From Peptococcaceae bacterium (GTDB taxonomy: Bacteria; Bacillota; Desulfitobacteriia; Desulfitobacteriales; Syntrophobotulaceae): 64,000 nt of DNA. The translations under genes and the position numbers were made by a program. Position 1 is the first letter of the stretch; every line of letters starts with the position of its first letter. The notes under the pieces are model-generated. The model saw nothing but the letters and a program-made list of their open reading frames with translations. It did no database searches and was not told where the DNA came from. The stretch is taken from NCBI GenBank assembly GCA_012517475.1, contig JAAYUV010000077.1, positions 3,800 through 67,799 of the forward strand, in the 5' to 3' direction. Shown piece after piece: positions 10,823 through 55,055 of this stretch.

Positions 10823-10826
10823 CTTC

Positions 10827-12104: not shown

Positions 12105-12146
12105 TAAATCCTTCTCGATATTAATTAGAGGAGAGCGCTATATTAG

Positions 12147-13670: not shown

Positions 13671-14815
13671 TGGCCAGAAAAATGAAGAACAGCGGGATTG
13701 AGTGGATAAAACAAGTTCCAATAGAATGGAAAACCTTAAGAGGCAAAAATATATTAAATTTAATGAATAGACCTTTTTCTGCTGGAGACGGTGTTATTAC
13801 ATGTTTTCGGGATGGAGAGGTTACCTTGCGAAGCAACCGAAGAGAAGATGGTTATACCTTTTCCGATAAAGAAATTGGTTATCAGGGTATAAAATATGGT
13901 GATTTGGTCATTCATGGTATGGATGGTTTTGCAGGTGCTATCGGTATTTCCGACTCTGATGGGAAAGGTTCTCCGGTCTTAATTGTTTGTACACCAAAAG
14001 GAAATATATACTTGAAATACATAATGTATTATCTAAGAATGTTATCTTCTCAAAATGTTTTTACTGCATTGGCAACAGGAATTAGGGAACGTTCTTGTGA
14101 TCTGAGATGGAATAAAATTGCAAACTTGCTTTTCCCTGTTCCTTCAACACAAGAACAACTAGCTATAGTTGATTACCTCGACCGAAAATGCAGCCAAATT
14201 GATGACAACATAGAAAAACAAAAAACAGTTATTGAAAAACTACTACTCTATAAACAATCCGTAATCACTGAAACTGTAACAATGGGAATTGATAAAAAAA
14301 TTGATAATAATTGGCGGGAAGAGAAATTAGGGAAGATAGCGTTATATAAAAAAGGTCCTTTTGGTAGTGATATAACTATTTCAATGTTTGTTCCAAAATC
14401 GCAAGGATCTATTAAGGTGTACGAGCAAAAAAATGCTATTTACAAAGATGCTACGTTAGGCGAATCTTATATTAACATGGAAACATTTCATAGATTGAAG
14501 TCGTTTGAGGTTTTCCCAGGTGATATAATTGTAAGCTGTGCTGGTACAATTGGAGAATGTTTTATTTTGCCTGACAATATGGAAAAAGGAATAATTAACC
14601 AGGCTTTAATGAAGATTAGCTTAAATACTGATATGAATAAGTCGTTCTTTTTATATTTATTTGATGTAATTTTAAAAGAATTATCTGCAAGGTATAGCAA
14701 TGGGAGTGCTATGAAAAATATTCCTTCTTTCGAAATTCTTAAAAAGCATAAAATACGAGTGCCAAATATTAAGAGACAAGATGAAATAGTGGAATATCTT
14801 AATAATAAAAGATAA
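13667..14815 (+). CDS. hsdS: type I restriction-modification specificity subunit HsdS (3' end frameshifted)
   Basis: Two target-recognition domains flank the central helix LFPVPSTQEQLAIVDYLDRKCSQIDDNIEKQK. The distal conserved helix (KLIEKLEEYK, then VTGKREVM*) lies after the stop in two other frames up to 14913. Confidence 0.75.
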   Translation: MMARKMKNSGIEWIKQVPIEWKTLRGKNILNLMNRPFSAGDGVITCFRDGEVTLRSNRREDGYTFSDKEIGYQGIKYGDLVIHGMDGFAGAIGISDSDGKGSPVLIVCTPKGNIYLKYIMYYLRMLSSQNVFTALATGIRERSCDLRWNKIANLLFPVPSTQEQLAIVDYLDRKCSQIDDNIEKQKTVIEKLLLYKQSVITETVTMGIDKKIDNNWREEKLGKIALYKKGPFGSDITISMFVPKSQGSIKVYEQKNAIYKDATLGESYINMETFHRLKSFEVFPGDIIVSCAGTIGECFILPDNMEKGIINQALMKISLNTDMNKSFFLYLFDVILKELSARYSNGSAMKNIPSFEILKKHKIRVPNIKRQDEIVEYLNNKR

Positions 14816-14913
14816 AAGTTTTAAAATTAATAGTGTTATTAATGGCAAACTAAAACTCATTGAAAAGCTTGAAGAATATAAAATGCGTTACCGGTAAAAG
14901 GGAGGTCATGTAA

Positions 14914-17507
14914 ATGCCTGATTTTGACTACAAAGAAAAAAAGCTGGAAGAAGCGATAGAATATTACCTTACAACCGAAGGTGGCTATGTCAAGGGCAGA
15001 GAGGATTATTACAATAAAGAACTTGCCTTAAGTATTGATAATCTTCTGACCTTCATTAAAAATACCCAGCCCAAGGAATGGGAGCGTTATGAGACCATAT
15101 ATCGGTACAACAGCGGGCAGGCTTTTGTGGAACGCTTTTGCAAAGAGGTACGTCAGGTTGGTATCATTCAAGTCTTACGGAAAGGGATTACGGGAGGACA
15201 ATTATTCCATAGCTTATCTCTGGGAAAATGTCTTACATAAAGATTCCCTGATGGAAATTTTGCAAAAGTTTGTCCATCTGGAGAAGAAAACTACTAAGGA
15301 TATAACGGGCAAGAAAAATGTAAAGAAAAACATCATCTTTCCCCGTTATCACCAGTTGGATGTTGTCCGTGAACTGTTGGCCGACGTCAAAGCTAACGGT
15401 GCGGGCCGTAATTATCTGGTCCAACACAGTGCCGGGAGCAGCAAATCCAACTCCATCGCCTGGCTGGCCCATCGACTTTCCGGTCTTCATAATCACCGGG
15501 ATGAAAAGATCTTCAAATCCGTAATCGTAGTTACCGACCGCAAGGTCCTGGACAACCAGCTGCAAGACACCATTTATCAGTTTGATCATAAGCTCGGCGT
15601 AGTGGAGAAAATCGATAAGGACTCCGCCCAGTTAAAAGACGCCATCAATTCCGGCAAAGCCATTATTATCACCACCTTGCAAAAATTCCCCGTTATTTAT
15701 CAAGAAATTAGCAGCGGGCACAACAATTTTGCCATTATCGTGGACGAGGCCCATTCTTCCCAAACCGGTGAAGCTGCTAAAAAGCTAAAGAAAGCTCTGG
15801 CTGATACCGATTGCATCCTGGAGGAATACGCCCGGATGGAAAACAAGGAAGAGGCGGAAAGAAAAGATGACGAGGATAAACTGCTGAATGAACTGGCCAC
15901 TCAGGGCCAGCATAAAAACCTGTCCTTCTTTGCTTTCACAGCGACCCCTAAGGAAAAAACGCTGCAGATGTTCGGAGAGAAGCAGCCTGACGGCAAATTC
16001 AAGGCTTTTCATATTTACTCCATGCAGCAGGCCATTGAAGAGGGCTTTATTCTTGATGTCCTTAAATACTATACTACCTATAACCACTATTTTGAGATCA
16101 TCAAAAAAGTGGAGGATGACCCAGAACTGGATAGTTCCCGGGGAACCAGCGCCATCCGTAGATTTGAATCTCTTCACCCTCATAATCTTGCCCAGAAAAC
16201 CGTGATCATGGTGGAACATTTCCGTTCCATTACCAAGCACAAAATCGGGGGCAATGCTAAGGCCATGGTAGTTACCGCCTCCCGCTTGCATGCCGTAAGA
16301 TACTTGCAGGAATTCAAACGCTATATCCAGGAGAAAAAATACGATGACCTCGATGTCCTGGTGGCCTTCTCCGGCACAGTTCAGGATGAGGGAATGGAAT
16401 ACACGGAAGAAAAACTGAATAAAAATTCCGAAGGCAAGACCATTAAAGAAAAACAGCTGCCCGAGTATTTCAAATCAGACGAATTCAACATGCTGATCGT
16501 GGCGGAAAAATACCAAACCGGATTTGATGAGCCGCTGCTGCACACCATGTTTGTGGATAAAAAATTATCTGGGGTAAAAGCGGTCCAGACCCTTTCCCGT
16601 TTGAATCGGACGATGCCGGGTAAGGAAAACACCTTTGTCTTAGATTTCGTTAATTCAGCGGACGAGATCAAAGCGGCTTTCGAACCATATTATCAAGCAA
16701 CCATATTATCAAGCAACCATTTTATCAGAAGAAGCCAGTCCCAACATTATTTACGACATTAAAAACACCTTGGACCAGTATCATCTATGGCAGCAATCGG
16801 AGATTGAACTGTTTGCCCAAATTTATTATCAGTCTAAGCAGGATATGCCTGATCTCGGCAGACTGGCCTCCTCCTTGCAGCCGGCGCTGGATCGGTTTGC
16901 TGCGAAAGAACCTAGAGAACAGGATGAAATCAAAACTGGACTGGCTCGGTTTATCCGGCTCTATGCCTTTATTACCCAAGTCTGCAGGATGTTTGATCGG
17001 GACATTCATAAATTCAGCGTGTATGCCAAGCTTCTGCTGAAGCTGATACCCAAGGGTAAATTTGAGAAGATCAATGTTGATAACAAGGTCTTACTTGCTA
17101 AATATAAATTAGAGAAGGACTTCGAAGGAATTATTAGGGTTGCGGAGAGTCCGGAATTAGGTCCGATCAAAGGAACAGTCGGCGGTAAGGAAAAGAAAAA
17201 AGAGCATTTATCTGTAATTATTGACCGGATCAACGAACGCTTCGGGACAAACTTTACGGAAATGGACAAGGTTTTGGCGCAAATTACAGAAGATTTTATG
17301 GCCGACGAACTCATGGTCGATATAGCAAAAAATAATCCGCAGGCTACTTTTGAGAGGATTTTCGAACAGCAGTTCAAAGATTTCGCAGCTATCCGCTATG
17401 AACAAAATGAAGAATTTTTCATCCGTATGTTTAAAGATGAGGAGTTTATGAGCGAGGTTATTAAACTTATGCTGCCCGAGGTCTATCGCAGGCTGCGCAA
17501 AAAGTAG
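14914..17507 (+). pseudogene. hsdR: type I restriction enzyme R subunit HsdR, broken into three ORFs (14914..15240, 15089..16762, 16770..17507)
   Basis: Helicase motifs: QHSAGSSKSNS, IIVDEAHSSQ, FTATP and QTGFDEP. The nuclease-domain region between LRKGI and YSIAYLWENVL is missing (~15190-15200). A 16-bp tandem duplication at 16685-16716 shifts the frame. Confidence 0.85.
16685..16716 (+). repeat. perfect 16-bp tandem duplication (CCATATTATCAAGCAA x2) inside hsdR
   Basis: Read directly. Removing one copy restores FEPYYQATILSEEASPNIIYDIKNTLDQYHLWQQ in one frame. Confidence 0.95.
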
Positions 17508-17662: not shown

Positions 17663-18735
17663 ATGGCTGGTAAGTTTAAATGGCACAAGTTTTCTGACGT
17701 AAATTTAAGTGACGCTTTCTTTGATTCACTCAAAGAAGATTATGAAGAATTCCCAGTTTGGTTTAACAAAAAAAGCGTAGAGGGAGAATATGCCCTTGTC
17801 TTTCATGATGAAGAAGGGATAGGCGCTTTTATCTATCTGAAAAAAGAAAATGAACCAATTGCGTTATCTGACAAGACGTTACCGGCTGTCCCGCGTGTAA
17901 AGATCGGTACTTTCCGGTTAGCTGAACGGTATAGGGGTTTACGGCTTGGAGAAGGAGCTTTAGGTGTTTCTTTGTGGAAATGGCGTGATGACAAAGATGA
18001 GGAGATCTATGTCACAGTATTTGAAAAACATCACGAACTGGTCAGTCTTTTTCAGAGATTCGGGTTTATCTGTGTTGGAGTCAATCGTCGTGGCGAATGT
18101 GTCTATTTAAGAAGCCGTACAAAGATTGATTTTCGTGACCCTTATAAATCTTTCCCCTTTATCCGTCCTAATTTTAGGAAAGCAGGATTGCTTCCGATCT
18201 TGAAAGGTTTCATGATCGGCTATTTCCATACTCTGAGCTAAAAATCAAAAAGCGCGAAATAGAAGAGGAAACAGCTGGCAACGGAATTACTAAGGTTTAC
18301 ATAGCTACTCCTTATACAGCTATGCATTACGAGACCGGTGAACCCGTTGGAATTTATCGCATATATGAGGGGGAAACAGGGAAAACCTACAGGTCGGTTG
18401 TAACATCTTACTGTACGATAACCAAGATCGAGGTCATAAAAAACAATGGTAAAGTTGCAATGAGCTTCGCTGATTTTATAAGAAACGCCGGAAATAAAAC
18501 AGTATTTAATTCCGATGAACTATCGGCGATATATACACAAGACAATGTTGTCATGCTTGAATTAGTATATAACGGTTTTTTTGGCAAGGGGCACAATGTA
18601 ATTCACAAGGACTTAAAAGAGCAGGGACTGTTTACTTCACATCCTTATAAGTTGGATTTCACGATGGATCAGTTTATAAGAATACTGGAAATGGGTGGCG
18701 TAGATGTGCAAAATGTTATTATCAATCAATCCTGA
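17663..18735 (+). pseudogene. GNAT-like N-acetyltransferase-family protein split by a frameshift near 18200 (ORFs 17639..18241 and 18322..18735)
   Basis: Frame A ends ...KAGLLPILKGFMIGYFHTLS*. Frame B, open from 18178, reads ERFHDRLFPYSELKIKKREIEEETAGNGITKVYIATPYTAMHYETGEPVG and runs into the second ORF. The GNAT-like core is RLAERYRGLRLGEGAL..FQRFGF. Confidence 0.5.
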
Positions 18736-19072
18736 GCATGTGGAAAATATATTAAATGGAAATAAGCAATTTGAGTTCCGGAAAATACAGTGCAAGTCTG
18801 ACGTGGACAAAATTGTTATTTATTCAACTTCACCTGTAATGCGGGTAGTAGGAGAAGCTGAAGTATTAGATGTGCTTGTCGACACACCTGATAAAGTTTG
18901 GCAAATGACTGCCGAACTTGCTGGAATTACAAAAGATTTTTTTGATAAGTACTTTGAGAATAAAAAAAAAGCTGTGGCTTATAGGTTGGGGAAGGTGCAA
19001 AAGTATCAAAAACCCTTGGAACTTTCGGATTTCGGTATCAACTTTGCACCGCAGTCGTTTGTGTATATTTGA
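18704..19072 (+). CDS. ASCH-domain protein
   Basis: MLLSINPEHVENILNGNKQFEFRK...IVIYSTSPVMRVVGEAEV is the typical ASCH N-terminus. It overlaps the end of the upstream gene and contains an in-frame A9 tract at 18962-18970. Confidence 0.75.
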   Translation: MCKMLLSINPEHVENILNGNKQFEFRKIQCKSDVDKIVIYSTSPVMRVVGEAEVLDVLVDTPDKVWQMTAELAGITKDFFDKYFENKKKAVAYRLGKVQKYQKPLELSDFGINFAPQSFVYI

Positions 19073-19190: not shown

Positions 19191-19239
19191 AAAAAAATCC
19201 GGATGAGCATAATTAACTTGTACTCATCCGGATTTTTTT
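19191..19239. terminator. strong bidirectional rho-independent terminator
   Basis: AAAAAAA-TCCGGATGAG-(15-nt loop)-CTCATCCGGA-TTTTTTT. Confidence 0.75.
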
Positions 19240-19316
19240 ATATAGTGTCATTCTCAATTTTTTGTCCCAGCCATTTGCTACAATAAAATTATAAACAAGG
19301 GTAAGGAGGAATCCTT

Positions 19317-20399
19317 TTGGGAAAAGATAAATTTCTTATAATTGTTCATTTTCTAGCAACCGGAATTGTCCGCTGGCACAAAAATTATATAAACTCTGGT
19401 AAGACTTATCCCTATCCAGATGATGTGCAGTTTGGCTTGGATAAGCTGGCCTGTTATAGCCTAACAAAAAACCTGGAATTTCCCCGGAATATTCCGGAAG
19501 CGGTTCAATGGTTTCACCAGCCTCTTCAAACATGGCCGCAGGTTTTAGAAAATTTACTGCCTTTTGCTACGGAAGAAGCATTAATGATAGATAACATGCC
19601 GACGGATCTCTGTTATGAATTGGCTCTGGAAGGTGATGTTGAGCAGGAACTGATGGAAGGATTATTGGTTCAGGTTTTGAATCTCTGCCAAGAACAAGGA
19701 AAAAATGAAGATTACGTCCGCTTCCGCCGTTTTATTATTGAAAATCCAATTTTGGATCGCGCTAAGCTAATCCGTTGGAGCAACAACCTGCAAAACGGCG
19801 TGGCTGCCCGGCTCCTCCAAGATGCCTATGAAGACCTGCCCGCCGGTGCTCTGGGGCCGGAAGGGAAGTATTATCAGTGCCCTCATTGCGGTTGGATTTT
19901 AGAATGGAAGAACGAAAGTGAAGGCCGGTGTATTCATCAACAATGTACGGAAAAGACCAATAATTTTAAGAAACGGAAAGTCCTTGCGGGAACCGGTCTG
20001 GTACGTTTGAAACGCGGTATTATGCGCTTTATCGCCTGGCCGGGCCGCTGGGAATTAAAACTGGAAAGTGATCTCTTAAAACTGCACCACGGTTTAAAAG
20101 TAGATTTATGGCCCGGTTTTGACAGTTATGACCTGCGGCTTACTTTTCCCACCGGTGAAGTGTGGGGGATTGATGTTAAAGATTGGAGAAATCCCTATCT
20201 ATTGGCGAAAAAAGCAGGTGTCTTCCCGCCGTATCCTGTTTGGGACAAGGCATTCTGGATTATCCCGGATTATCAATGGCGGCGTTACAGCCATTATGGA
20301 CAAGAATTCGGGAGATTCCATAAACTTGGCAGCAATGAATTTATCGAATCCCTTGGCGGCTTCCGCCGGAGGGTTCAACGTTTGCTGGAGGTGGAATAA
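19317..20399 (+). CDS. Zn-ribbon plus PD-(D/E)xK restriction-endonuclease-fold protein (candidate pPIWI-RE-associated REase)
   Basis: AAGGAGG SD 7 nt before the TTG start. Zn ribbon: CPHCGW...CIHQQC. Nuclease-like core: SYDLRLTFPTGEVWGIDVKDW. It ends 2 nt before the next gene. Confidence 0.5.
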   Translation: MGKDKFLIIVHFLATGIVRWHKNYINSGKTYPYPDDVQFGLDKLACYSLTKNLEFPRNIPEAVQWFHQPLQTWPQVLENLLPFATEEALMIDNMPTDLCYELALEGDVEQELMEGLLVQVLNLCQEQGKNEDYVRFRRFIIENPILDRAKLIRWSNNLQNGVAARLLQDAYEDLPAGALGPEGKYYQCPHCGWILEWKNESEGRCIHQQCTEKTNNFKKRKVLAGTGLVRLKRGIMRFIAWPGRWELKLESDLLKLHHGLKVDLWPGFDSYDLRLTFPTGEVWGIDVKDWRNPYLLAKKAGVFPPYPVWDKAFWIIPDYQWRRYSHYGQEFGRFHKLGSNEFIESLGGFRRRVQRLLEVE

Positions 20400-20401
20400 C
20401 G

Positions 20402-23400
20402 ATGCGGGATGTAACTGGTTGGAAAAAAAGCTTTGTAAAAGAAATTAAAAAAGCGCTACCGGAAGATACTGGATTAAAAGCGGGAAATTTCTGCGATATC
20501 GAACTCGGGTTGTTTTTATGGTTTAAAATTGCACCGGATGAAGATTGCCACAATTTTTGGACTCTGCTTGCCGGCTGGCCCTTCGCAAACGTATGGCTGA
20601 CTTTAAGCGCTGAAAATAAACAAGCGATTGCTTTCATCCGCTATTATCTGCGTTTCTATAAATCCAACCGTTTCTGGAAAAAGTGCCTGGAAAATTACCG
20701 AGAGATAGGGGAGACCATAAGGCTATTCAATATTGATGAAAATGGTTTGCTTAAGAAAAGAGAACTCTCGATTTGTCCGGAAAGAGTGGATCTGTATACC
20801 CAGGTTCTGCAAACAATGCCTGAAAGTTCTCCAAGTGAGCTAAAATGGGCTGATGAGGGAATTGTTTACTTCCGGACTCCTGAAGACAGTATTGACTCAG
20901 TTGAAATTCCTCCAGAATGGGAAGCTTCTTCTTCAACAAGCAAGTTGCAGCTTAAAGGGAAATCTCAACGCCAGAATTTAATTGTACCTTGGCTGGAATT
21001 AGAAGAGACTGCTTCCTGGATGGATGAGCAATTAAAGAACTCTTTTTACGGGGAACAAATCCGAAAACTTCGTCTGGAATCGCTCGCCAGGGAATGGAAT
21101 TCGGAGCATGGAATTCCATTAAACGGACTGGCTCATATCGTCGGAATGCCGAGTTCCGGTAAATCAACGCTAATGAAGATCTTAGCAGTTTGGGCTGGGC
21201 AAAAGGGTCTCCACACCACCCTGATCGTCGACAATATCGCTTCCGTCTTGGAGCTCACCGCTTTGCTGGGAAAATTCAACTTAGAGGCGGTTCCTATCTT
21301 AGGTGCCTATAACCGCCAGGCCCACTTGGAAAAGACTCATGCTTTAATTCAAGAAAATGGACTGAATCTCGGAAGCATACCACAGCTAACATGGTTAAGC
21401 ACGGTTTGTCCTTTAAACGGCTTACGGGAAGACACATCGGTTCACCAACCGTTTTTACCGGGAAGAGAGCCCTGTACAGCTTTATATAAAGAACATCCTT
21501 GGCAGGCTAAATCGAAGAAGCCCCAGCGTTATCTCTGTCCACTCTTTGAACGCTGCCCGGTTCAAGAGGCAATGTGCCGTTTACTCAAAGCCAATATTTG
21601 GGTTGCTACTCCGGCCAGTTTGATTCATACCTGGCTTCCTGTCCAGTTAACCGGACAAAAGATGCGTATCTGGGAAGCCGTTTACCGGCATAGTGATCTC
21701 CTAATCATGGATGAGGTAGACCGGATCCAGGTTATTTTTGATCAATTCTTTGCTCCCACCCAGGTGCTTGCCGACCATACAGGAAATTCCTGGCTGAATA
21801 AGCTGGGTGAAAACGTTAGCTCTTCCTATTATGGAGGAGGCCGGAGACAATTAGCGGATGCCAATCTGGTCGATTGGCACCGGGCTTATGATAATGTCCA
21901 ATCGTCCATCAATTTGCTTTACACTACGTTATTAAAAAATATCGAGCTTCGTAAATGGCTGGGGCGCAATTATTTTACCACCTGGGGCCTAATGGACCGT
22001 TTGGTGCATGAATGGGAAGCGACTGGTCTTCCTATTTCCACTGCAGAAATGATGAACAAGATGGAAGCTTATATCAAAAATCCTTTTGGCCAGGATACAG
22101 TTCAGGAACTGGCCCAGGCAGCTACTCTGTTTCTGATTGCCCCTGAATCTGAGCTCGGTCGCTCCTTGATTCGTCCCTGGCTCAAATCGCAGGGCATTAA
22201 TCTTATAGATGAGTTTACCGTGGATAAACTGGCTTTGATCGTTGTGTTGGCCATTCTCGAATATTCGCTCTTCACCATGGTGGAGGAATGGGAAGAAGCA
22301 GCCCGGGAATTTAATCTGGATGACGAGGGCTTGGATTTTTTCCGCCACCGGCTGGGAGATTATCAGCCGGTTTTACCGGAAGCTCCTATGGGTAATTTAC
22401 TGGGTTTTCAGTATGTGCAAAGTGATAATAACCGCAATCCGGGTATTATTCGTGTCTTCCGTTTTATGGGCGTTGGACGCTGGCTGTTGGCCAACTTTCC
22501 CGAATTGCTCGCAGACGGAGAAGGAATTACCGGCCCTCACACCTTGCTGTTATCCGGAACCAGTTGGGCTCCGGGGTCGCCTGCTTACCATCTTGCTGTT
22601 CCACCCGCCGCTATCCTGAAAGCTCCGGAAAGCGAGCTGGCCGGCATTGAGGGGAGTGAGATAGATTTTTCACCTGTTTATGACGAACTTGGCAAACCTC
22701 TACGGGTATCCGGGACCAAAGGCCAAGAACGGTTCACGAATCTTCAGCAACTATTAAAAGGGTTGACCGATCCCGGTCGGCAGGGAATGAGCCGTTTAAA
22801 ACGGGAGCTTACCTTGCTTGAACCGCAAAGGCAACGCCTCCTGCTCTTGGTAGGAAGTTACGAGGAAGCCAGAATAACCAAAAACTTTTTTAAGAACCAC
22901 CGGGATTGGGCAGAAAGTGATGTCTGCTGTTTAATCCGGGATAATGAGGACGAGCAAGATGATACCACCGTTCCTCGAGGAATGGTAGAGCAAGTTGCCA
23001 CCCGACAGGCTAAGATTCTCATCGCACCGATGCTGGCGATTGAGCGAGGCCATAACATCTTGAATGAAGACAATGTCGCTGCTTTTGGAAGTGCTTACTT
23101 TTTGGTACGCCCCATGCCTGTTCCCAATGATATGAACAACTACACCCAATATATTAACTGTTGGGCAATGCGTAAATATCAAGACGGGGAATGGCTGAGC
23201 AAAAAATGTTCGGAAGCAAAGATGGGACAAATCGGAACCCAATTCCGCTCTGACGCAAATACGTGCTGGCAATTCCGGGTAAAAAACGAGCACAAAAACC
23301 GTAGCCTTCATAACTGGCCACTCGAAGAAAAACGCGAATTATTCTGGACTCAGTTGGTGCTTATCTGGCAGATTATCGGAAGACTCATCCGAGGAGGCTG

Positions 23401-23632
23401 TAAAGCCCGCGTTCATTTTTGCGATGCTGCCTTTCATTTGGAAACTACCTCCTCGGGAATAAAAGTAAGCGAAGCATCCAGCATGCTCCTGGGAATGAAA
23501 CAGGTTCTTGAACTGTATTTCAAGCCAGAGACTGAAGTAGGATACGACTCCATTTCGGAGGAAGATCGTCGACTGGCTCAAGCTTTATATAAACCGCTTT
23601 ATGAAATGTTAAAAAAGATGAAGGAGATTTAG
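20402..23632 (+). CDS. large SF2 helicase with an Fe-S-type Cys cluster (DinG/XPD-like; candidate pPIWI-RE-associated helicase)
   Basis: P-loop: GMPSSGKST. Cys cluster between motifs I and II: VCPLNG, EPCTALY, YLCPLFERCPVQEAMC. Also ANIWVATPASLI, LLIMDEVDR and LLLSGTSW. Confidence 0.55.
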   Translation: MRDVTGWKKSFVKEIKKALPEDTGLKAGNFCDIELGLFLWFKIAPDEDCHNFWTLLAGWPFANVWLTLSAENKQAIAFIRYYLRFYKSNRFWKKCLENYREIGETIRLFNIDENGLLKKRELSICPERVDLYTQVLQTMPESSPSELKWADEGIVYFRTPEDSIDSVEIPPEWEASSSTSKLQLKGKSQRQNLIVPWLELEETASWMDEQLKNSFYGEQIRKLRLESLAREWNSEHGIPLNGLAHIVGMPSSGKSTLMKILAVWAGQKGLHTTLIVDNIASVLELTALLGKFNLEAVPILGAYNRQAHLEKTHALIQENGLNLGSIPQLTWLSTVCPLNGLREDTSVHQPFLPGREPCTALYKEHPWQAKSKKPQRYLCPLFERCPVQEAMCRLLKANIWVATPASLIHTWLPVQLTGQKMRIWEAVYRHSDLLIMDEVDRIQVIFDQFFAPTQVLADHTGNSWLNKLGENVSSSYYGGGRRQLADANLVDWHRAYDNVQSSINLLYTTLLKNIELRKWLGRNYFTTWGLMDRLVHEWEATGLPISTAEMMNKMEAYIKNPFGQDTVQELAQAATLFLIAPESELGRSLIRPWLKSQGINLIDEFTVDKLALIVVLAILEYSLFTMVEEWEEAAREFNLDDEGLDFFRHRLGDYQPVLPEAPMGNLLGFQYVQSDNNRNPGIIRVFRFMGVGRWLLANFPELLADGEGITGPHTLLLSGTSWAPGSPAYHLAVPPAAILKAPESELAGIEGSEIDFSPVYDELGKPLRVSGTKGQERFTNLQQLLKGLTDPGRQGMSRLKRELTLLEPQRQRLLLLVGSYEEARITKNFFKNHRDWAESDVCCLIRDNEDEQDDTTVPRGMVEQVATRQAKILIAPMLAIERGHNILNEDNVAAFGSAYFLVRPMPVPNDMNNYTQYINCWAMRKYQDGEWLSKKCSEAKMGQIGTQFRSDANTCWQFRVKNEHKNRSLHNWPLEEKRELFWTQLVLIWQIIGRLIRGGCKARVHFCDAAFHLETTSSGIKVSEASSMLLGMKQVLELYFKPETEVGYDSISEEDRRLAQALYKPLYEMLKKMKEI

Positions 23633-23634
23633 AG

Positions 23635-26220
23635 ATGAGCAATAACAAAAAATCGTCCGGCTACCGGTTACAGCCCATGAGTTTTCAGCTCAGGGCCAAT
23701 ATTCAAGTCCAACACCCCATATATTTCTTAACAATTCCAAAAACTTTCCGCGAAGCACTCTCCCGACTAACACAACATTTTTACAGTCAGACAGCAACAA
23801 AAGCAGCAACTCAGGAGTCCCGCTTCAATGTACCTATCGCAAGCTTGAACACTGCTTTACTGGCCTTATTCCCGGAAATAATCACGATTATGAAGTATAC
23901 GTTCATTGAAGGAAACCAGTGGCTCGAAGCGGAACGACCACTGAATTTGGAACACTTTCAAGATGTCCTAAGGTCCTGGCTGTCTACGGAGTTTCAAAAG
24001 GTACAAGGCTCAGCAATCTTTCAGGAAACCTTCGAACTAGTCGAAACAGTAAGTTGGACTTGGGAGAAAAAAGTGGTGGATTTTAGCAATACCGATATTT
24101 GTGAGAACAGGACAGCGTATGCTGAAAATGCCTATTTTTCAGCGTTACCGGACTATATTTGTCAAAGATTAAGCCAGGAGGGTGTACATTTCTCTTTTGG
24201 CAGCGAAGAAAGAGCTTTGTACCGCAGTGAGGAAAATGAAGTGACTTCCTGGCCCCCCTTCGAATACTACAGTAAAAATGGCCGCAAATACTATTACTCG
24301 ATTTCCTTGATTTTTTCCGTTGAAACCATCCCCCAATTCACCAAGCCGATAATCACGATGAATGTTCGCACAAAGCGTTATACCAGCAATTCATTAATCC
24401 TGGAAAATGGTTTTATCATCCTTCCTCCGGATAAAACATCGGTTCTGATGAATATTCCTCCTTACTGGCAATCCTCCGGTAATATGCCAACTCTTTGCCG
24501 AGCCAAGATAGAAGCAGATTGGAATACCCGTACCGTGATATGGACCGATAAACTCGGTGAAATTTTAAACAGACTCAGTTGGCCTTCCCAATTGCCCTCC
24601 GCGCAACAATTAGCTTTAAAACCCCAAGACTATCTTACGAGTGAAAAAGGGATGGCGTTAAGCATTGTTTATCATAACACTATGAGTACGCATGGAGTTA
24701 GACACCCTGTGGGCACCGGCAGTGGCCTGCTAGACAAGAATGACCTTCTCCGCCAGGTAGCGGCAGCGATCCCGGTACTGGAACCGGTCTCAAGCTTGCA
24801 ACGGGTCAGCAAAAATATCCGAAAAAATCTTTTGGTTCAACCTTGGGAAAAAATCTCCGACAGGCAACGACGGCAAAGCCTTGGGGAAATAACCGGCGGA
24901 GAAGTTTCCATAGAGATTCTTTATGATTCTGAAACCACATTAAAAGCTTTAAGAGAAAACGTGTTAAAAATAATCGGTTTTGAAAACATTGCGCCGGAAG
25001 GAAACATTTATAAATCTCCGCAACTTACGCTCTTTTTAACAGAAATACCCATCGGGGAGCTAGGTAATGAACTAAACATCGATACCAGCAAAGGTAAGGT
25101 AAAGATAAAAGATGCAGTCAATGAAAGGATTGCCCTGGTTGAGCAGCGTTTCAGTACAACATTCCGGGTTACAGGAACTTTTGTCGAACTGGCCGCCAAG
25201 ACTGATTTTGATGAACGGGTCGACCCTAAACGGGCCTTAAGAAAAGGCCTGGCTAAAACCGGCCGTGTCAGTCAATTTATTGAAAAAGAAGCAACTTCTG
25301 ATAGCCTAAAAAAGATTAAACAAGAGTCTGCCTTAGAAAAAAGAGCGGAGAATGCCGTACTTGATCTTTTACGTCAATTGGGGTATCTGCCCGAAAGATT
25401 TACTATCCAGATTGTCGGGCAAGAGACCGACACCAGTCCTCTGGACATTTATGCCTTTTGGTTGATCCGGACTAATTCTGCCCAACAGCGCAAACAAAAC
25501 TTACTCCCGCTTGTACTTCACATGCAAAGCGGAAGCAGCGAAATTTTAGCTCGTTACCCTCAAAGCCAGGGATGGCAACCTTATTCTAAAATGTTATTAA
25601 GTTTGGGCCAAATTGCTTCCGGGCAGGAATCGAAACTTCCCGATTCAGAAGTAGCCGGATTCATTCAGAAGATATTGCAGGAGGATATCGTCCCGTCCCA
25701 GAATGCTCTTGTCTTAGTTGACGGTTATAATCTGCGGGCCAAGTGGTACTGGCTTACCGATAAGTGTATCGATCCTTCCCGCCTTTGGGTATCAGAAAAA
25801 AGGCAGGGTTGGGATGTTAAGGATATCCCAGGTATCAGACTGGTACGAATCCGCACGAATGAGGAAGTCCCAGCCGGCTACGGGATTAAAGATGATGGAG
25901 AGTTAGGCTTAACGAGCGGCGTCTTCGCTGCTATGGGAAATGTTTTTTATGGGGTAGCCCCGAAACCCAATACCATGAAAAATTATGGAACTTCGAAAGC
26001 AAAAACCAGAAGGACCAATCAGCCAAATCTTGACCATAAACAGCCTGGATGTGTGGAAATCTATCCTGTTCTAATGCCCGCCGATGACGATCCGGCTGCG
26101 TGGGCGTCATTAGTCCAAAAGATGCGCCAGATGTTACCTTCTTATGATGATTACGCTATTCATCCGTTGCCCATACATTTGTTAAAGAAGGCGGAAGAAT
26201 ATCTTAGTGCCTTAGAGTAA
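23635..26220 (+). CDS. candidate pPIWI-RE (PIWI-RE family, Argonaute-like) protein
   Basis: 861 aa. MID-like basic patch: KRALRKGLAKTGRVSQFI. C-terminal RNase H/PIWI-like blocks: ALVLVDGYNLR, IRLVRIRTNEEVP, VEIYPV. Terminal HPLPIHLLKKAEEY. The operon context matches the published prediction. Confidence 0.5.
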   Translation: MSNNKKSSGYRLQPMSFQLRANIQVQHPIYFLTIPKTFREALSRLTQHFYSQTATKAATQESRFNVPIASLNTALLALFPEIITIMKYTFIEGNQWLEAERPLNLEHFQDVLRSWLSTEFQKVQGSAIFQETFELVETVSWTWEKKVVDFSNTDICENRTAYAENAYFSALPDYICQRLSQEGVHFSFGSEERALYRSEENEVTSWPPFEYYSKNGRKYYYSISLIFSVETIPQFTKPIITMNVRTKRYTSNSLILENGFIILPPDKTSVLMNIPPYWQSSGNMPTLCRAKIEADWNTRTVIWTDKLGEILNRLSWPSQLPSAQQLALKPQDYLTSEKGMALSIVYHNTMSTHGVRHPVGTGSGLLDKNDLLRQVAAAIPVLEPVSSLQRVSKNIRKNLLVQPWEKISDRQRRQSLGEITGGEVSIEILYDSETTLKALRENVLKIIGFENIAPEGNIYKSPQLTLFLTEIPIGELGNELNIDTSKGKVKIKDAVNERIALVEQRFSTTFRVTGTFVELAAKTDFDERVDPKRALRKGLAKTGRVSQFIEKEATSDSLKKIKQESALEKRAENAVLDLLRQLGYLPERFTIQIVGQETDTSPLDIYAFWLIRTNSAQQRKQNLLPLVLHMQSGSSEILARYPQSQGWQPYSKMLLSLGQIASGQESKLPDSEVAGFIQKILQEDIVPSQNALVLVDGYNLRAKWYWLTDKCIDPSRLWVSEKRQGWDVKDIPGIRLVRIRTNEEVPAGYGIKDDGELGLTSGVFAAMGNVFYGVAPKPNTMKNYGTSKAKTRRTNQPNLDHKQPGCVEIYPVLMPADDDPAAWASLVQKMRQMLPSYDDYAIHPLPIHLLKKAEEYLSALE

Positions 26221-26259
26221 AAGACCTGATAACGAATTTGATTTTTGGAGGTTAGAACA

Positions 26260-26470
26260 ATGGAATTTAATAATACCATTAGTTATGATGTGGATAATAG
26301 CGCTGAACGCATGGATGAGATCCTTAATGCCGGAAATGACAATTTTTCCGACAAGGACTCTGTGCCTTTACGAAGTACCCTTACCTATACAAATGGCTTT
26401 TATCTTAATGTAACTTCTGTTTTGTCGATATCGTGGGATCTTCAGATATGACAGACCAACATAAAAATAA
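26260..26470 (+). pseudogene. N-terminal remnant of a class III nucleotidyl cyclase (frameshifted and truncated)
   Basis: MEFNNTISYD...SVPLRSTLTYTNGFYLNVTSVL, then after a 1-nt shift, VDIVGSSDMTDQHKNK*. This matches the (F)xDIxGS(S/T) metal-binding motif of class III cyclases. The rest of the gene is absent. Confidence 0.4.
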
Positions 26471-26497
26471 GTGAACGGTATGAAGGAGCCTAACCTA

Positions 26498-27688
26498 ATG
26501 AAACTTATGCACATCGCCGACCTGCATATCGGCAAACGCGTCAACGAATTCAGCATGCTGGAGGACCAAAAGTTCATATTAAACGAAATCTTGCGCCTGG
26601 TAGACGAGGTCAGACCTTCTGCCATCCTGATGGCCGGGGACATCTATGATAAAAGCGTTCCGGCGGGGGAGGCGGTGGAAGTCCTGGATGAGTTCCTGAC
26701 CGAGCTTGTGGCCCGCGAGGTGCAGATATTTATCGTCAGCGGCAACCATGACTCGCCGGAGCGCTTAAACTTCGGCAGCCGTATAATGGAGAAAAACGGG
26801 GTGCATATCGCCGGAACTTTTGACGGGTTGCTTAAGCAAATCACACTGACGGATGAGTTCGGACCGGTGAATATTTTTCTTTTGCCCTTTATTAAGCCTG
26901 CGATGGTGCAGCCTTATTTTGCCGATCAAGAGCTTGGGTCCTATGAGGATGCCGTACGTGTGGTCATTAACGCTTCCCGGGTTAATACGGAGGAACGGAA
27001 CATCCTGGTGGCCCACCAGTTTATTACCAGCAACGGCAAAGAGCCCGAACGTTCCGAATCCGAAACCGTTGCCGTTGGCGGCTTGGATAATATCGACGCA
27101 TCTGTCTTCAAGCCTTTTGATTATGTGGCGCTCGGACACCTGCACGGACCGCAGTCCATCGGCAGGGAAACCGTTCGTTATGCCGGTTCGCCACTCAAAT
27201 ATTCCTTTTCCGAGGTCCGCCAGCATAAATCCGTAACCATTCTGGAATTTGCCCAAAAAGGCACATTGGATATCCAGTTCCTTTCCCTAACGCCCCGGCG
27301 CGATATGCGGGAGATCAAGGGGCCACTGGCGGAGCTGGTGCGGGCGGGACTTTCCACAGGCGATTCTGCCGGAATTCCTGCGGCGGTTTCATCTGAGAGC
27401 CTTTGCCAGGATTATATCCGGGCGGTCTTAACCGATGAGGATGAGGTTTATGATGCGATCGGACAGCTGCGCCAAGTATACCCCAGCGTCATGCGCATTG
27501 ATTTTGAAAACAGCCGCAGCAGGCAGGGTGGGGACTCCAAGTCGGCAGCCTCGGGGGATGTAGCCCGGAAAAGCCCTATGGAATTGTTTGAAGAATTTTA
27601 TATCAAGCAGAATAACACGGAGATGACGGAAGAGCAGCGGCAAATCATGCAGGAAGTACTGGAGCAGGCGGGGGGTGCGGACAGATGA
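26498..27688 (+). CDS. sbcD: exonuclease SbcCD, nuclease subunit D (Mre11-like)
   Basis: MKLMHIADLHIGK, GDIYD, GNHDS and HQF phosphoesterase motifs. GAAGGAG lies 9 nt upstream of the ATG at 26498; the ORF track starts at a GTG at 26471. Confidence 0.9.
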   Translation: MKLMHIADLHIGKRVNEFSMLEDQKFILNEILRLVDEVRPSAILMAGDIYDKSVPAGEAVEVLDEFLTELVAREVQIFIVSGNHDSPERLNFGSRIMEKNGVHIAGTFDGLLKQITLTDEFGPVNIFLLPFIKPAMVQPYFADQELGSYEDAVRVVINASRVNTEERNILVAHQFITSNGKEPERSESETVAVGGLDNIDASVFKPFDYVALGHLHGPQSIGRETVRYAGSPLKYSFSEVRQHKSVTILEFAQKGTLDIQFLSLTPRRDMREIKGPLAELVRAGLSTGDSAGIPAAVSSESLCQDYIRAVLTDEDEVYDAIGQLRQVYPSVMRIDFENSRSRQGGDSKSAASGDVARKSPMELFEEFYIKQNNTEMTEEQRQIMQEVLEQAGGADR

Positions 27689-30600
27689 AACCTCTTCAAA
27701 TTGTGATGAGCGCCTTTGGTCCTTACGCCGGCCGGGTGGAACTTCCCCTAAAGCAAATCGGCAGCGAGGGATTATTTCTGATCACCGGGGATACGGGAGC
27801 AGGGAAGACGACCATCTTCGATGCCATTGCCTTTGCTCTTTTTGACGGGGCCAGCGGCTCGGTCAGGACAGTGGATACCCTGCGCAGCGATTTTGCCGCA
27901 CCGGATGCCAAGACCTATGTCGAACTGGAATTTACCCATAGGGGACAAACCTATAAAGTGACCCGTAATCCCAAATACGAGCGCCCCAAAAAAAGCGGGA
28001 CGGGCTTAACCCAGGAAAATGCGGATGCCGCGCTTGTTTTGCCCGGTGATGAGGTCATTACGGGAAACAATAAGGTGACCGACAAGATCGTCGAGCTATT
28101 AGGGATCGATTTTAAGCAGTTTAAGCAGATTGCCATGATTGCCCAGGGGGAGTTTCTGAAGCTGCTCCTGGCTGAAAGCAGCGAGCGTGCCGGGATTTTC
28201 CGCAAGGTTTTTAACACCGATATTTATATGACCATCCAGGATGCGCTGAAGCGCAGGGAGAAATACTTAAGGGATCAGTGCGAGGAAAGCAGCCGCAGCA
28301 TTTTACAGTACATGGACGGCATTCAATACGCTGAAAATCATAAGGACTACCCCCAGCTTGCCGAACTGCTGTCCAGACGCAGCATTCACGCAACGGAGCA
28401 GGTCATCGCTTTGCTCCAAGCTTTGATCGTAGACGATCAGGCCGTTCAGGATCAGGACAAGCAACAAGCCGGAAAACTGGAGAGTTCAATCTTATCCAAG
28501 GCTTCCGAACTGAAAGAAGCCGAGTATGTCAACAAATCCTTTGCCGCTCTGGAAGAGGCCCAGAAGTCACTGGACGAGCTGCTGCTGAAGGCCGAGGAAA
28601 TCAAACAAAACGAAAGAGCCGCCCTGGCTGCCGAAAAAGCGCTGCATGGGGTCAAGCCGCTTGAAGATATTTATCTGCGGGAAAAAAGAGGTCGCGATGA
28701 ACTCATAAGAAGCAGGCAAAACTTAAAAGAAACCATTGCCAGGCAGACGCCCAGGGTGGAAGAACTTCAGACCGCCTGGCTTATGGAGCAGCAAAAAGAA
28801 CCCATCCGGGAGAAACTGGCCGGTGAGATAGTCAAACTGAACGAGGCTTTGCCCCAATACGGCAGGGTGGAGGCTCTCCGGCAGGAAAAGAACAAAGGGG
28901 AAAAAGCCCTGCAAACCCTGGAAGATTCCCTGGCTTCCCTGAAAAGGCACAAGGAAGAGCTTACCGGCAAAAAAGACAGGCTGAAGCAGGAAGGCGAAAG
29001 CCTAAGCGATGCGGAAACGCATCTCCTGAAAAGCCAAACTTTGCTGCAGCAACTGGCAGACCGGGAAATCGATCTGAAGAGCCTTACTGCCGGGATCTCA
29101 TCCATGCAGAAGCTGCAGGCGGAATATGCCGGGCTGCAAAAGGCCTTTCTTGCAGCGGAGAAAACCTATAACACCGCCAATGATGAGTACATGCGCAAAG
29201 AAAGCGCCTTCTTCCGGGAGCAGGCTGGCATTTTGGCTCAAAGCCTGGAAGACGGGCTTCCTTGTCCGGTCTGCGGTTCCACTGTGCACCCGCAGAAGGC
29301 TAAACCCACGGTTGACGCTCCCAGCGAAGCGGAGATTCAAAGGCTGAAAGCGGAGAGAGAACGGACCCAGCAGCTCTTGCAGCAGGCCAGCGAAAAGGCC
29401 GCCGGCAAGAAAACACAAATGGAGACCTCCGAAGCCCATTGGCTTGAAACCGCTCAAAAGGTGTTCTGGCCGGATATTCCGGAGACCCTATCCGGACTAG
29501 AATCCCTTGTGCAAAGCGAATTGGAGAAAACCTTAAGCAACAAGCAGGAACAAACGGCAGCCAAAGTTAACCTGGAAGCCCGGTATGCCCGGAGAAAAGA
29601 ATGTTTGGAGCTTTTGGAGCAGACCGAAAAGGACCTGAAGCAGGCCAACGAGGGTCTTACCCGGCAAACGGAACAAAAAGGAGCACTCGAGGTGTCACTC
29701 AGTGCTGTGAACAGTCAGATGGAAACATTGCAAGCGGGTTTGGAATACCCGTCCATCGACAAGGCCAAGGAAGCTATCCAAGACCTGACGCAAAAGCTGG
29801 AAGAACTAAAGATTGCTCTACAGAATGCGGAAAAGTCTTATCAGGAAAACAAGCGGGCGCTGGACGGCAATATCACGCTTTTCAATGATCAGGAGCAGAG
29901 AATGGAAGCTGCCGAGTCATGCATGGAACAGGCTCTGGCCGAGTATACTGCAAAATACATGGAAGCGGGCTTTAGCAACGAGGATGCCTATCACGCCGCC
30001 TTGCTATCCGAGCCGGAGCTGGCGGAACTCAAAGACCGGATCATTGCTTATCATGATGCCTGCAAAACGGCCAATGCCGATATTATGAGACTTACGGAAG
30101 AAACTAAAGATAAACAGCCGAAGGATACCGTCAAAATCCTGGAGGAACAGAATGCCTTGCAGAAGGAGAAAGAAAAGCTGGACCAACAAATCCAGCAGGT
30201 TGCAGCAAGACTTCAGAACAACGAAAGAATTGTTAAAGAGGTAACCAAGGCAGACAAAGAGCGCCGGCAGCTGGAGAAAGACTACCTGGTGGTATTAAGC
30301 TTATCCAAAACCGCCAACGGGGAACTTGCCGGCAAGCAAAAGCTGGCCTTTGAACAATTCGTCCAGGCCTCTTACTTTAACCAGATTATTGCTGAAGCCA
30401 ATAAAAGGCTCTCGGCCATAACCAATAGCCGTTATGAACTGCTGCGCAAGGAGAATGCCGCGGACAACCGGTCCCAATCAGGACTCGATCTGGATGTCCT
30501 AGACAATTACACCGGAAAAGTCCGCTCCGTTAAATCCCTGTCGGGTGGGGAGTCATTTAAGGCCTCCCTGGCTCTGGCCCTGGGTCTATCCGATGTCATC

Positions 30601-30828
30601 CAAAGCTACGCCGGTGGAGTGGAAATCGACACCATGTTTATCGACGAGGGCTTTGGTGCTTTGGATTCTGAATCCCTGGAACAAGCCATCATCACGCTTC
30701 ATAGTTTAACGGCGGGGAACAGGCTTGTCGGCATCATTTCTCATGTCGGCGAATTAAAAGACCGGATCGATAAAAAGATCGTCGTCAAGAAAGACATCTC
30801 CGGAAGTACCATTCAATTAGTCAAGTAA
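27685..30828 (+). CDS. sbcC: exonuclease SbcCD, ATPase subunit C (Rad50-like)
   Basis: P-loop: GDTGAGKTT. Long coiled coil with a CPVCGS zinc hook. LSGGESF signature and FIDEGFG Walker B. It overlaps the sbcD stop by 4 nt. Confidence 0.9.
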   Translation: MKPLQIVMSAFGPYAGRVELPLKQIGSEGLFLITGDTGAGKTTIFDAIAFALFDGASGSVRTVDTLRSDFAAPDAKTYVELEFTHRGQTYKVTRNPKYERPKKSGTGLTQENADAALVLPGDEVITGNNKVTDKIVELLGIDFKQFKQIAMIAQGEFLKLLLAESSERAGIFRKVFNTDIYMTIQDALKRREKYLRDQCEESSRSILQYMDGIQYAENHKDYPQLAELLSRRSIHATEQVIALLQALIVDDQAVQDQDKQQAGKLESSILSKASELKEAEYVNKSFAALEEAQKSLDELLLKAEEIKQNERAALAAEKALHGVKPLEDIYLREKRGRDELIRSRQNLKETIARQTPRVEELQTAWLMEQQKEPIREKLAGEIVKLNEALPQYGRVEALRQEKNKGEKALQTLEDSLASLKRHKEELTGKKDRLKQEGESLSDAETHLLKSQTLLQQLADREIDLKSLTAGISSMQKLQAEYAGLQKAFLAAEKTYNTANDEYMRKESAFFREQAGILAQSLEDGLPCPVCGSTVHPQKAKPTVDAPSEAEIQRLKAERERTQQLLQQASEKAAGKKTQMETSEAHWLETAQKVFWPDIPETLSGLESLVQSELEKTLSNKQEQTAAKVNLEARYARRKECLELLEQTEKDLKQANEGLTRQTEQKGALEVSLSAVNSQMETLQAGLEYPSIDKAKEAIQDLTQKLEELKIALQNAEKSYQENKRALDGNITLFNDQEQRMEAAESCMEQALAEYTAKYMEAGFSNEDAYHAALLSEPELAELKDRIIAYHDACKTANADIMRLTEETKDKQPKDTVKILEEQNALQKEKEKLDQQIQQVAARLQNNERIVKEVTKADKERRQLEKDYLVVLSLSKTANGELAGKQKLAFEQFVQASYFNQIIAEANKRLSAITNSRYELLRKENAADNRSQSGLDLDVLDNYTGKVRSVKSLSGGESFKASLALALGLSDVIQSYAGGVEIDTMFIDEGFGALDSESLEQAIITLHSLTAGNRLVGIISHVGELKDRIDKKIVVKKDISGSTIQLVK

Positions 30829-53298: not shown

Positions 53299-53315
53299 AA
53301 AGGAGGAGGTGAAAA

Positions 53316-55051: not shown

Positions 55052-55055
<4 letters not shown>
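53316..55055 (+). CDS. cas8b: type I-B large subunit Cas8b (Cst1-like)
   Basis: 579 aa between cas6 and cas7. Cys-rich CFICDAPI...CPLCKLIYSC zinc-finger region. Confidence 0.75.

Follow-up and report, generated by a model that had tools for sequence, protein, structure and literature searches.

Which system do three tightly packed genes on a contig of a Peptococcaceae bacterium encode, and how might their products work together? We addressed this question for a 64,000-nucleotide stretch of contig JAAYUV010000077.1 (assembly GCA_012517475.1; hereafter, the window). An earlier note, made from the letters of this DNA, had assigned the three genes to the operon of a restriction endonuclease (REase), a DinG-type helicase, and an Argonaute-like PIWI-RE protein, which was predicted in 2013 (Burroughs, Iyer and Aravind, PMC3702460) and is now detected by PADLOC as 'pAgo type III' (pAgo, prokaryotic Argonaute; PMC11333966). 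Our analysis bears out this assignment, with all six Pfam domains and three PADLOC models of the operon recovered from the three proteins, and we regard it as practically certain that the locus carries the pPIWI-RE three-gene operon in intact form, known in PADLOC as the 'pAgo type III', or Ppr, system. It is a divergent member of a system already catalogued in Pfam and PADLOC, not a new kind of system.

The domain assignments rest on Pfam and on PADLOC, which is a library of defense-system models from 2023 that includes whole-protein models for this trio; all six pPIWI-RE Pfam domains scored far above their curated gathering scores, and the NCBIfam models returned nothing for the three proteins. 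The product of gene 1 has the domain order that a pPIWI-RE first gene requires, with (i) a helical Y domain (pPIWI_RE_Y, PF18156; residues 11 to 146, E = 4.8e-22) that includes the conserved arginine, (ii) a zinc ribbon, and (iii) a restriction-endonuclease fold (pPIWI_RE_REase, PF18154; residues 243 to 354, E = 2.9e-25), and it matches PADLOC PprRE with an E value of 1.2e-45. The Cys4 ribbon and the PD-(D/E)xK-like core that had been read from motifs in this protein are both present and conserved: the ribbon cysteines C188, C191, C205, and C210 are kept in at least 76 of 77 homologs, the nuclease residues E246, D272, and D286-V-K288 in at least 75 of 77, and the Y-domain arginine R137 in 76 of 77. 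No sequence-specificity module was recognizable in this REase by Pfam or by homolog comparison, and it has no N-terminal helix-turn-helix (HTH) domain, whereas some cyanobacterial copies are annotated as Fis or MerR fusions.

Gene 2 encodes an N-terminal Z domain (pPIWI_RE_Z, PF18155; residues 25 to 174, E = 2.5e-29) and a helicase of superfamily 2 (SF2), and its product matches PADLOC PprDinG with an E value of 5e-191. The P-loop, DEVD box, and SGT motif noted earlier are all in place and kept in at least 79 of 80 genome homologs. Specifically, Walker A (residues 248 to 255) has G248 and K254 in 80/80 and G253 in 79/80, whereas the DEVD (437 to 440; D437, E438, and D440), SGTS (718 to 721; S718, T720, and S721), and ERGHN (881 to 885) motifs, as well as motif VI (QxxGRxxRG, 990 to 998; Q990, G993, R994, and R997), are each kept in 79/80 or more. 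XPD and DinG helicases carry a 4Fe-4S cluster domain between motifs I and II. Between K254 and D437 of the gene 2 protein, the cysteines C336, C358, C379, and C385 are invariant, both in all 80 genome homologs and in two helicase alignments, and they make up a putative Fe-S site. A five-cysteine cluster had been proposed here; these four cysteines stand, whereas the fifth (EAMC) is not among the invariant columns.

The fold of the helicase was examined with an AlphaFold2 (AF2) model built from 34 relatives (predicted local distance difference test score [pLDDT], 85.5; predicted template modeling score [pTM], 0.87), which shows a large helical Arch-like insertion at residues ∼464 to 660. The best 35 Foldseek matches of the model, headed by Escherichia coli DinG (6fws, E = 1.4e-11), are all DinG, XPD/Rad3 (including TFIIH and archaeal XPD), DdmD, or CasDinG, which settles the check on its SF2 fold. 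E. coli DinG and XPD (Rad3), the best structural matches, share with the gene 2 protein the position of the four cysteines, the Arch-like insertion, and the SF2 motifs at a sequence identity of ∼11 to 12%; the gene 2 protein differs from them by its extra N-terminal Z domain of ∼170 residues and by being dedicated to its operon, rather than to general repair. A PDB sequence search with the single helicase sequence found no relative, and no C-terminal nuclease domain was seen in the model or by Pfam.

The product of gene 3 comprises an N-terminal region (pPIWI_RE_X, PF13111; residues 21 to 413, E = 1.5e-48), a MID domain (MID_pPIWI_RE, PF18157; residues 464 to 587, E = 1.3e-20), and an RNase H domain (RNaseH_pPIWI_RE, PF13032; residues 606 to 857, E = 1.5e-40), and it matches PADLOC PprPIWI with an E value of 2.5e-127. 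The MID-like K/Q patch and the RNase H/PIWI-like C terminus described in the earlier note are present, and their residues are conserved among 140 representatives: in the MID domain, D530 and R580 are kept in 140/140, R536 in 138/140, K532 in 132/140, and Q547 in 127/140; in the extension of the PIWI β-sheet, the arginine and glutamate of the family's 'RE' signature, both present in gene 3, are kept in 137/140 (R735) and 135/140 (E808). An AF2 model from 55 relatives (pLDDT, 89.5; pTM, 0.90) has the overall bilobed N-PAZ-MID-PIWI fold of Argonautes. Its top 50 Foldseek matches are exclusively full-length Argonaute and PIWI proteins, among them KmAgo, human AGO1/2/4, RsAgo, MpAgo, Siwi, and MIWI (E values of 6e-17 to 7e-13, ∼10% identity, and TM scores of 0.40 to 0.54 normalized on the target), as the structural check suggested for this protein had anticipated. 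PDB sequence searches with the PIWI-RE protein, used singly and as a 55-sequence profile, found no relative, and we found no solved structure of any pPIWI-RE family member; it is by fold alone that the PIWI-RE protein and the helicase could be tied to known structures.

The linkage of the three genes was examined through homologs obtained by an exhaustive HMMER search for the PIWI-RE protein and through the more conserved helicase alignment. The former gave 564 PIWI-RE clusters with E values of 1e-3 or less among 1.84 billion representatives, the nearest being 44% and 41% identical to the gene 3 protein, whereas the closest helicase relatives are 56 to 57% identical. Word-index searches, whether started from the PIWI protein alone or from a 55-sequence alignment, recovered nothing beyond the query itself; scanning the genome collection for patterns of the single PIWI protein yielded no match, and the PIWI alignment varied too much to provide patterns. 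Helicase patterns, run against 185,579 species genomes, led to at least 535 confirmed helicase matches, and the phyla among the matches listed include Cyanobacteriota, Actinomycetota, Chloroflexota, Bacillota, Planctomycetota, Bacteroidota, and others. When the best 80 of these loci were searched with hidden Markov models of the three proteins, the order REase-helicase-PIWI was found on one strand in 77; in two of the other three, the locus is cut off by a contig end, and the third has a partial helicase. The co-occurrence of the three genes that the earlier note made a condition of its reading is therefore found, and the linkage is obligate.

The same order recurs on plasmids and on contigs from metagenomes, which together span at least five phyla. 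The contigs of the two closest metagenomic relatives carry the triad, the first of them also with 2-nt spacing, and it is present in Nostoc, Calothrix, Streptomyces, and Azospirillum plasmids (Pfam-confirmed in the first three). Helicase relatives occur on 23 plasmid records; carriage of the system by phages was considered as well and rejected, with helicase relatives on 0 of 50,697 phage records. PIWI-RE proteins that stand alone occur too, a point already made by Burroughs et al. One such form, of 1158 residues, lies on a relative's contig (positions 846 to 4322) and has an N-terminal MarR-type HTH; an overlapping gene for a Uma2-family nuclease follows it, and neither a helicase nor an REase gene is found upstream.

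The three open reading frames (ORFs) are codirectional and separated by gaps of 2 nt each, exactly as first described. The junctions read TAA-cg-ATG (20397 to 20404) between genes 1 and 2 and TAG-ag-ATG (23630 to 23637) between genes 2 and 3, and Shine-Dalgarno-like sites lie within the preceding genes (GGAGGTGG for gene 2 and GAAGGAG for gene 3), which, together with the 2-nt spacing, is a layout suggestive of translational coupling. The gene products (360, 1076, and 861 residues) agree in length with those of the closest relatives (362, 1077, and 859 residues and 363, 1088, and 834 residues), and all three genes are therefore taken to be full length. The terminator and the strong Shine-Dalgarno sequence reported ahead of the operon were both recovered. 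The hairpin has 22-nt arms, with a folding energy of −25 kcal/mol for the RNA and a z score of −8.2 against shuffled sequences; because an A-run and a T-run flank it, it is probably bidirectional, and it would terminate the upstream ASCH gene and insulate the operon. A promoter candidate follows, which is weak by itself; across the region, promoter-like sites are no more numerous than expected from shuffled sequences. No Rfam family, tRNA, or local repeat array that might supply guides was found near the operon, and the ORF list and a domain scan of the window showed no methylase linked to the triad. The locus thus has in common with other pPIWI-RE three-gene systems (i) the six domains, (ii) the gene order, (iii) the closely spaced termini, (iv) R735 and E808, (v) the Cys-rich DinG-type helicase, (vi) the zinc-ribbon REase, and (vii) the lack of a linked methylase. 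NCBI already lists proteins of the operon, under the names 'MAG: RNAseH domain-containing protein' and 'hypothetical protein GX434_12840' (Peptococcaceae bacterium).

Features of the pPIWI-RE operon (positions in the window) and the evidence for each
Feature	Position	Strand	Details and evidence
Intrinsic terminator hairpin	19191..19239	+	inverted repeat, 22-nt arms; A-run and T-run on its flanks
Candidate sigma-70-like promoter	19262..19289	+	TTGTCC, 16 nt, TAAAAT; consensus scan, 9/12 matches
Shine-Dalgarno AAGGAGG	19303..19309	+	7 nt 5' of the TTG start of the REase gene; read from sequence
Gene 1, pPIWI-RE-associated restriction-endonuclease-fold protein	19317..20399	+	360 aa, TTG start; Pfam, PADLOC
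Gene 2, DinG/XPD-type SF2 helicase	20402..23632	+	1076 aa; Pfam, PADLOC, AF2 and Foldseek
Four-Cys segment of gene 2 (putative Fe-S site)	21407..21556	+	C336, C358, C379, C385; between helicase motifs I and II
Gene 3, pPIWI-RE Argonaute-like protein	23635..26220	+	861 aa; Pfam, PADLOC, AF2 and Foldseek

Slicing Argonautes have a full DEDX catalytic tetrad within their RNase H fold, in which the first catalytic aspartate lies two residues past a small residue in β1 (GxD) and the second ends β4 (..RDG). In our model of the gene 3 protein, the RNase H core consists of β1 (604 to 612, DIYAFWLIR), β2, β3, an extra helix, α1, and β4 (691 to 696, ALVLVD, followed by G), the extra helix being a family-specific element noted by Burroughs et al. 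The slicer positions are occupied by W609, D696, and H848, the last being the histidine of a PxxxxH motif that is kept. The first aspartate is thus missing and the tetrad incomplete. The position of W609 (A/G607-x-W609 in β1) holds Trp in 117 of the 140 representatives and never holds Asp, either in these 140 or in the 79 genome copies nearest to the gene 3 protein. Because a tryptophan replaces the first aspartate, which is never seen in the relatives examined, the PIWI-RE protein is predicted to bind but not slice, and on this model it is probably a nonslicing sensor.

The family member against which this prediction can be set is PsPIWI-RE from P. stutzeri, the only one with published biochemistry that we found. 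It shares the conserved R and E of the family with the gene 3 protein, and its gene lies directly downstream of dinG with a 4-nt overlap, in a reported cluster with a putative restriction enzyme (PMC10991935). In vitro, PsPIWI-RE is an RNA-guided DNA nuclease and a DNA-guided RNA nuclease of low efficiency (Huang et al. 2022), acting solely on DNA/RNA heteroduplex combinations (PMC10991935). Its aspartates D525 and D610 are experimentally essential, and D525A abolishes cleavage (PMC10991935). PsPIWI-RE thus has both catalytic aspartates and cleaves, whereas the gene 3 protein, with its W609, is predicted to lack slicing activity; according to Burroughs et al., the catalytic residues are retained by just a subset of the PIWI-RE family. 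We assigned W609 to the position of the first aspartate by the strand topology of the model, the shape of the motif, and the spacing to the second aspartate, which is 87 residues from W609 to D696 and 85 residues from D525 to D610 in PsPIWI-RE. The residues E744, D818, and H848 (window positions 25864 to 25866, 26086 to 26088, and 26176 to 26178) are kept in 115 to 132 of the 140 representatives, although the canonical first aspartate is absent, and they might serve in docking a partner, in binding metal, or as a different active site.

A comparison with characterized systems suggests how a binding-only PIWI protein might be used. DdmE is an inactive pAgo with 5'-phosphorylated DNA guides. It recruits its partner DdmD, in which a DinG/XPD-like helicase and a PD-(D/E)xK nuclease are fused and which then degrades plasmid DNA (bioRxiv 10.1101/2024.05.10.593530). 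The anti-plasmid DdmDE system of Vibrio cholerae and the locus described here therefore have in common an inactive Argonaute-like sensor (predicted in our case), an XPD/DinG-type 5'-to-3' helicase, and a PD-(D/E)xK nuclease, and our helicase model has structures of DdmD among its best Foldseek matches. However, helicase and nuclease form one polypeptide in DdmD, whereas the nuclease here is a separate 360-residue protein with Y and zinc-ribbon domains; the insertion domain of DdmD has no Fe-S cluster, whereas the helicase here has four invariant cysteines; and DdmE belongs to a different pAgo clade, with no DdmE entry among the 50 best matches of our PIWI model. The locus is accordingly not a DdmDE member, and the resemblance is functional; our literature search found no paper that names PIWI-RE and DdmE together. 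In type I CRISPR (Cascade-Cas3) and type IV CRISPR (CasDinG), an SF2 helicase, which may or may not come with a nuclease, is likewise recruited by a guide-bearing recognition module, and CasDinG is a structural match of our helicase. In contrast to these systems, the operon has neither a CRISPR array nor cas genes, and its recognition module is a PIWI protein rather than Cascade.

By analogy, we propose that the pPIWI-RE operon functions as a split version of DdmDE or Cascade-Cas3. PIWI-RE would hold a short guide strand, anchored in the conserved MID pocket and base-paired with the nucleic acid of an invader; the pairing would probably be a DNA-RNA heteroduplex, which we propose because this is the sole pairing on which PsPIWI-RE acts. 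As its slicer site is incomplete, with Trp609 in place of the first catalytic aspartate, PIWI-RE would serve as a sequence sensor and loader and not as a nuclease. Target-bound PIWI-RE would then recruit or activate the DinG/XPD-type helicase with its putative Fe-S cluster, which would translocate 5' to 3' on the displaced strand and unwind the target, and the DNA cuts would be made by the zinc-ribbon PD-(D/E)xK REase, which has an intact active site. As a whole, an intact pPIWI-RE operon working in this manner is the explanation that we consider probable. Among its parts, a role in defense against mobile DNA, for which the context speaks (a defense island, plasmid carriage, and no match in the phage records), appears quite probable, whereas a hand-over to helicase and nuclease in the manner of DdmDE is tentative, with a likelihood that we place slightly below even. 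Somewhat more speculative is the possibility that the triad-linked PIWI-RE clade lost slicing and became a guide-loaded sensor for a redox-sensitive Fe-S helicase and a free-standing nuclease, which would make it a split counterpart of DdmDE and Cascade-Cas3 that arose independently; if true, the near-invariant E744, D818, and H848 would serve partner docking or a noncanonical site.

Several points weigh against this proposal. First, the placement of W609 at the first-aspartate position depends on topology, motif shape, and spacing, rather than on a residue-level superposition; an hhalign comparison of the PIWI profile with the PIWI domain of human AGO2 (a sequence 100% identical to that of 4OLA) gave a probability of only 0.3 and an irrelevant alignment. 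Second, D696, H848, E744, and D818 are conserved or present here, which may indicate a noncanonical active site. Third, the helicase is read as an Fe-S protein from just four cysteines. Fourth, deletion of piwi-re raises the ciprofloxacin sensitivity of P. stutzeri, which is the family's sole reported in vivo phenotype (PMC10991935) and points to chromosome maintenance rather than defense. Fifth, the operon lies in an island filled with dead genes, and it could be a recent acquisition that is not necessarily expressed. Finally, our search of the literature, which left most subscription-journal papers outside, found no experiment on the whole triad, and neither a structure nor a defense assay of it; guide type, target, and outcome are what we infer. 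The earlier statement that guide type, target, and mechanism had not been established consequently holds for the system as a whole in the literature that could be searched, but it needs to be amended for PsPIWI-RE, which was characterized in vitro in 2022 (PMC10991935).

The alternative that competes best with the guided model, although we consider it unlikely, is the R-loop-directed restriction proposed by Burroughs, Iyer and Aravind. It overlaps with the guided model and differs chiefly in the source of the pairing strand: PIWI-RE would carry no preloaded guide but would sense DNA-RNA hybrids or R-loops on transcribed or replicating invader DNA, the DinG helicase would unwind the R-loop or translocate on it, and the REase would cut the exposed duplex DNA. 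DinG-family helicases do act on R-loops and DNA-RNA duplexes (PMC3702460), and E. coli DinG is structurally the closest to the helicase here. The lack of a linked methylase implies that self is told from nonself by something other than modification, in keeping with R-loop sensing, while the restriction of PsPIWI-RE to DNA/RNA heteroduplexes in vitro fits either this model or the guided one. However, the strongly conserved MID pocket for a 5' end argues for an anchored guide, not for long hybrids, and DdmD, a helicase of similar structure, has a guide-loaded pAgo as its partner. Moreover, host genes form R-loops too, which leaves the specificity of such a system unexplained.

Recognition by PIWI-RE could instead act as a trigger of abortive infection, in which the REase and the helicase are unleashed on any DNA, including the chromosome, and the cell dies or arrests, as in SPARDA and the long-B pAgo-nuclease systems. 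The characterized systems that combine an inactive pAgo with an effector nuclease mostly work in this way (PMC11333966 and PMC13618286), and an REase that has neither a linked methylase nor a recognizable sequence-specificity module would suit such a role. A processive helicase partner, however, is typical of invader-directed degradation, as by DdmDE and Cas3, and not of collateral nucleases, and we regard abortive infection as improbable.

The surroundings of the operon bear on the proposed role in defense. It lies in a stretch of low guanine-plus-cytosine (GC) content (about 0.36 to 0.48) that ends at sbcD/sbcC (GC content, 0.50 to 0.53) and that reads as a largely decayed defense island, with two WYL/WCX regulators, DUF2779, HsdS, a GNAT gene, and an ASCH gene. 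McrBC, remnants of type I restriction-modification (R-M), a PycC remnant, and a GajB-like helicase lie nearby, and the triad of a relative adjoins a DNA methylase and GmrSD. A run of damaged defense genes occupies positions 8346 to 17507 of the forward strand. It contains (i) a chimeric ORF made of the N-terminal half of PD-T4-1, a piece of PDC-S02, and a P-loop, overlapping an EVE-AAA_5 McrB-like ORF in another frame, which is followed by an intact-looking McrC; (ii) a type I methylase (HsdM) of which the last ∼97 residues remain, followed by HsdS; and (iii) an HsdR that has lost its N-terminal part, matches positions 225 to 696 of a 1029-position profile, and is carried on in another frame at 16770. 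Directly 3' of the PIWI-RE stop codon, an ORF of 68 residues (26245 to 26451, forward strand) matches the Pycsar cyclase PycC (PADLOC PDLC02368; E = 1.3e-11, profile positions 3 to 48 of 234) and is a truncated remnant of another defense gene. Unlike the truncated and frame-split HsdR, the C-terminal piece of HsdM, and the PycC stub, the triad is unbroken, as the earlier note had stressed; amid broken genes, this is a weak indication of recent acquisition or of continued selection.

The same neighborhood includes sbcD and sbcC, which lie downstream of the triad (26471 to 30828, forward strand). On the contig of the second-closest relative, an SbcC-like AAA_23/SMC gene lies just upstream of the triad (contig positions 1 to 2206), and no SbcC-like gene was found beside the triad on the closest relative's contig or in the plasmid copies examined. 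As a functional partner of the triad, sbcCD is unproven, and the shared adjacency may be due to chance or to a common insertion neighborhood.

A housekeeping role, in which the triad would resolve replication or topological problems of the chromosome and have no part in immunity, is one that we consider distinctly improbable. It would account for the P. stutzeri deletion phenotype, which besides ciprofloxacin sensitivity includes cell-division defects (PMC10991935), and it could draw on the adjacency to sbcD and sbcC and on the SbcC-like gene near the triad of the second-closest relative. However, classical defense pAgos show the same ciprofloxacin phenotype (PMC11555693). Further, the distribution is patchy, with the confirmed helicase matches numbering at least 535 in the 185,579 species genomes, the triad is carried on plasmids and in defense islands beside R-M, McrBC, Pycsar, and GmrSD genes, and the closest PIWI relative is just 44% identical, a pattern that as a whole fits a horizontally moving accessory system. 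That the operon is a nonfunctional relic, intact in appearance only and decaying like its neighbors, is very improbable: while many defense genes of the island are truncated or frameshifted and the sequence comes from a metagenome-assembled genome, a reading frame of ∼6.9 kb without interruption, protein lengths within 2 residues of the closest relative's, the retention of all family-invariant catalytic and binding residues examined, and the preserved Shine-Dalgarno sites and coupling spacing speak against it.

Other features of the window lie further from the operon. A direct repeat of ∼200 to 290 nt with 83% identity occurs at 18553 to 18841 and at 31369 to 31576 (forward strand), the second copy being a decayed duplicate of the end of a 137-residue ORF and of the first part of the ASCH gene. 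Enclosed between the two are the triad, the PycC stub, sbcD, sbcC, and a MazE/AbrB-like ORF (30991 to 31266), an arrangement that could mark a past insertion or recombination that brought in this 12.7-kb block. Beyond them lies the UvrD/GajB-like helicase gene (31582 to 34431, reverse strand), which encodes 949 residues with N- and C-terminal zinc ribbons (PADLOC GajB, 4.7e-51). An Rfam match to a group II intron D1-D4 fragment (RF01999; 38833 to 38906, forward strand; 53 bits, model positions 43 to 118 only) adjoins an ORF with a HEPN domain (38064 to 38549, forward strand) and probably represents what is left of an intron. A type I-B-like CRISPR-Cas locus (52567 to 60578, forward strand), apparently complete, encodes Cas6, a Cas_CXXC_CXXC large subunit, Cas7/DevR, Cas5, Cas3 with an HD domain, Cas4, and Cas1, and its array extends from 61058 past the end of the window with at least 45 repeats (CGATTAATTTAACCAAGTGGAATGTAAAG) at a period of 64 to 66 nt; this locus is 26 kb from the operon and independent of it.

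PIWI-RE is the one recognized class of prokaryotic Argonaute systems for which we found no system-level mechanism in the literature: a 2024 survey that sets out how the long-A, long-B, short, and SiAgo-like classes confer immunity gives no such strategy for PIWI-RE, and an Argonaute review of September 2026 does not mention the family. The locus is one of many, as the helicase matches indicate, and does not stand out from its relatives by any feature; its value is that of an experimental candidate. Our analysis adds the invariant four-cysteine site, a quantified gene linkage, the predicted loss of the slicer, and the parallel with DdmDE. In summary, the locus provides a compact, fully intact, Firmicute-derived example of the system, and it carries a testable prediction, namely that a catalytically inactive PIWI sensor would act together with an Fe-S helicase and a nuclease on a separate chain, in the manner of a split DdmDE.

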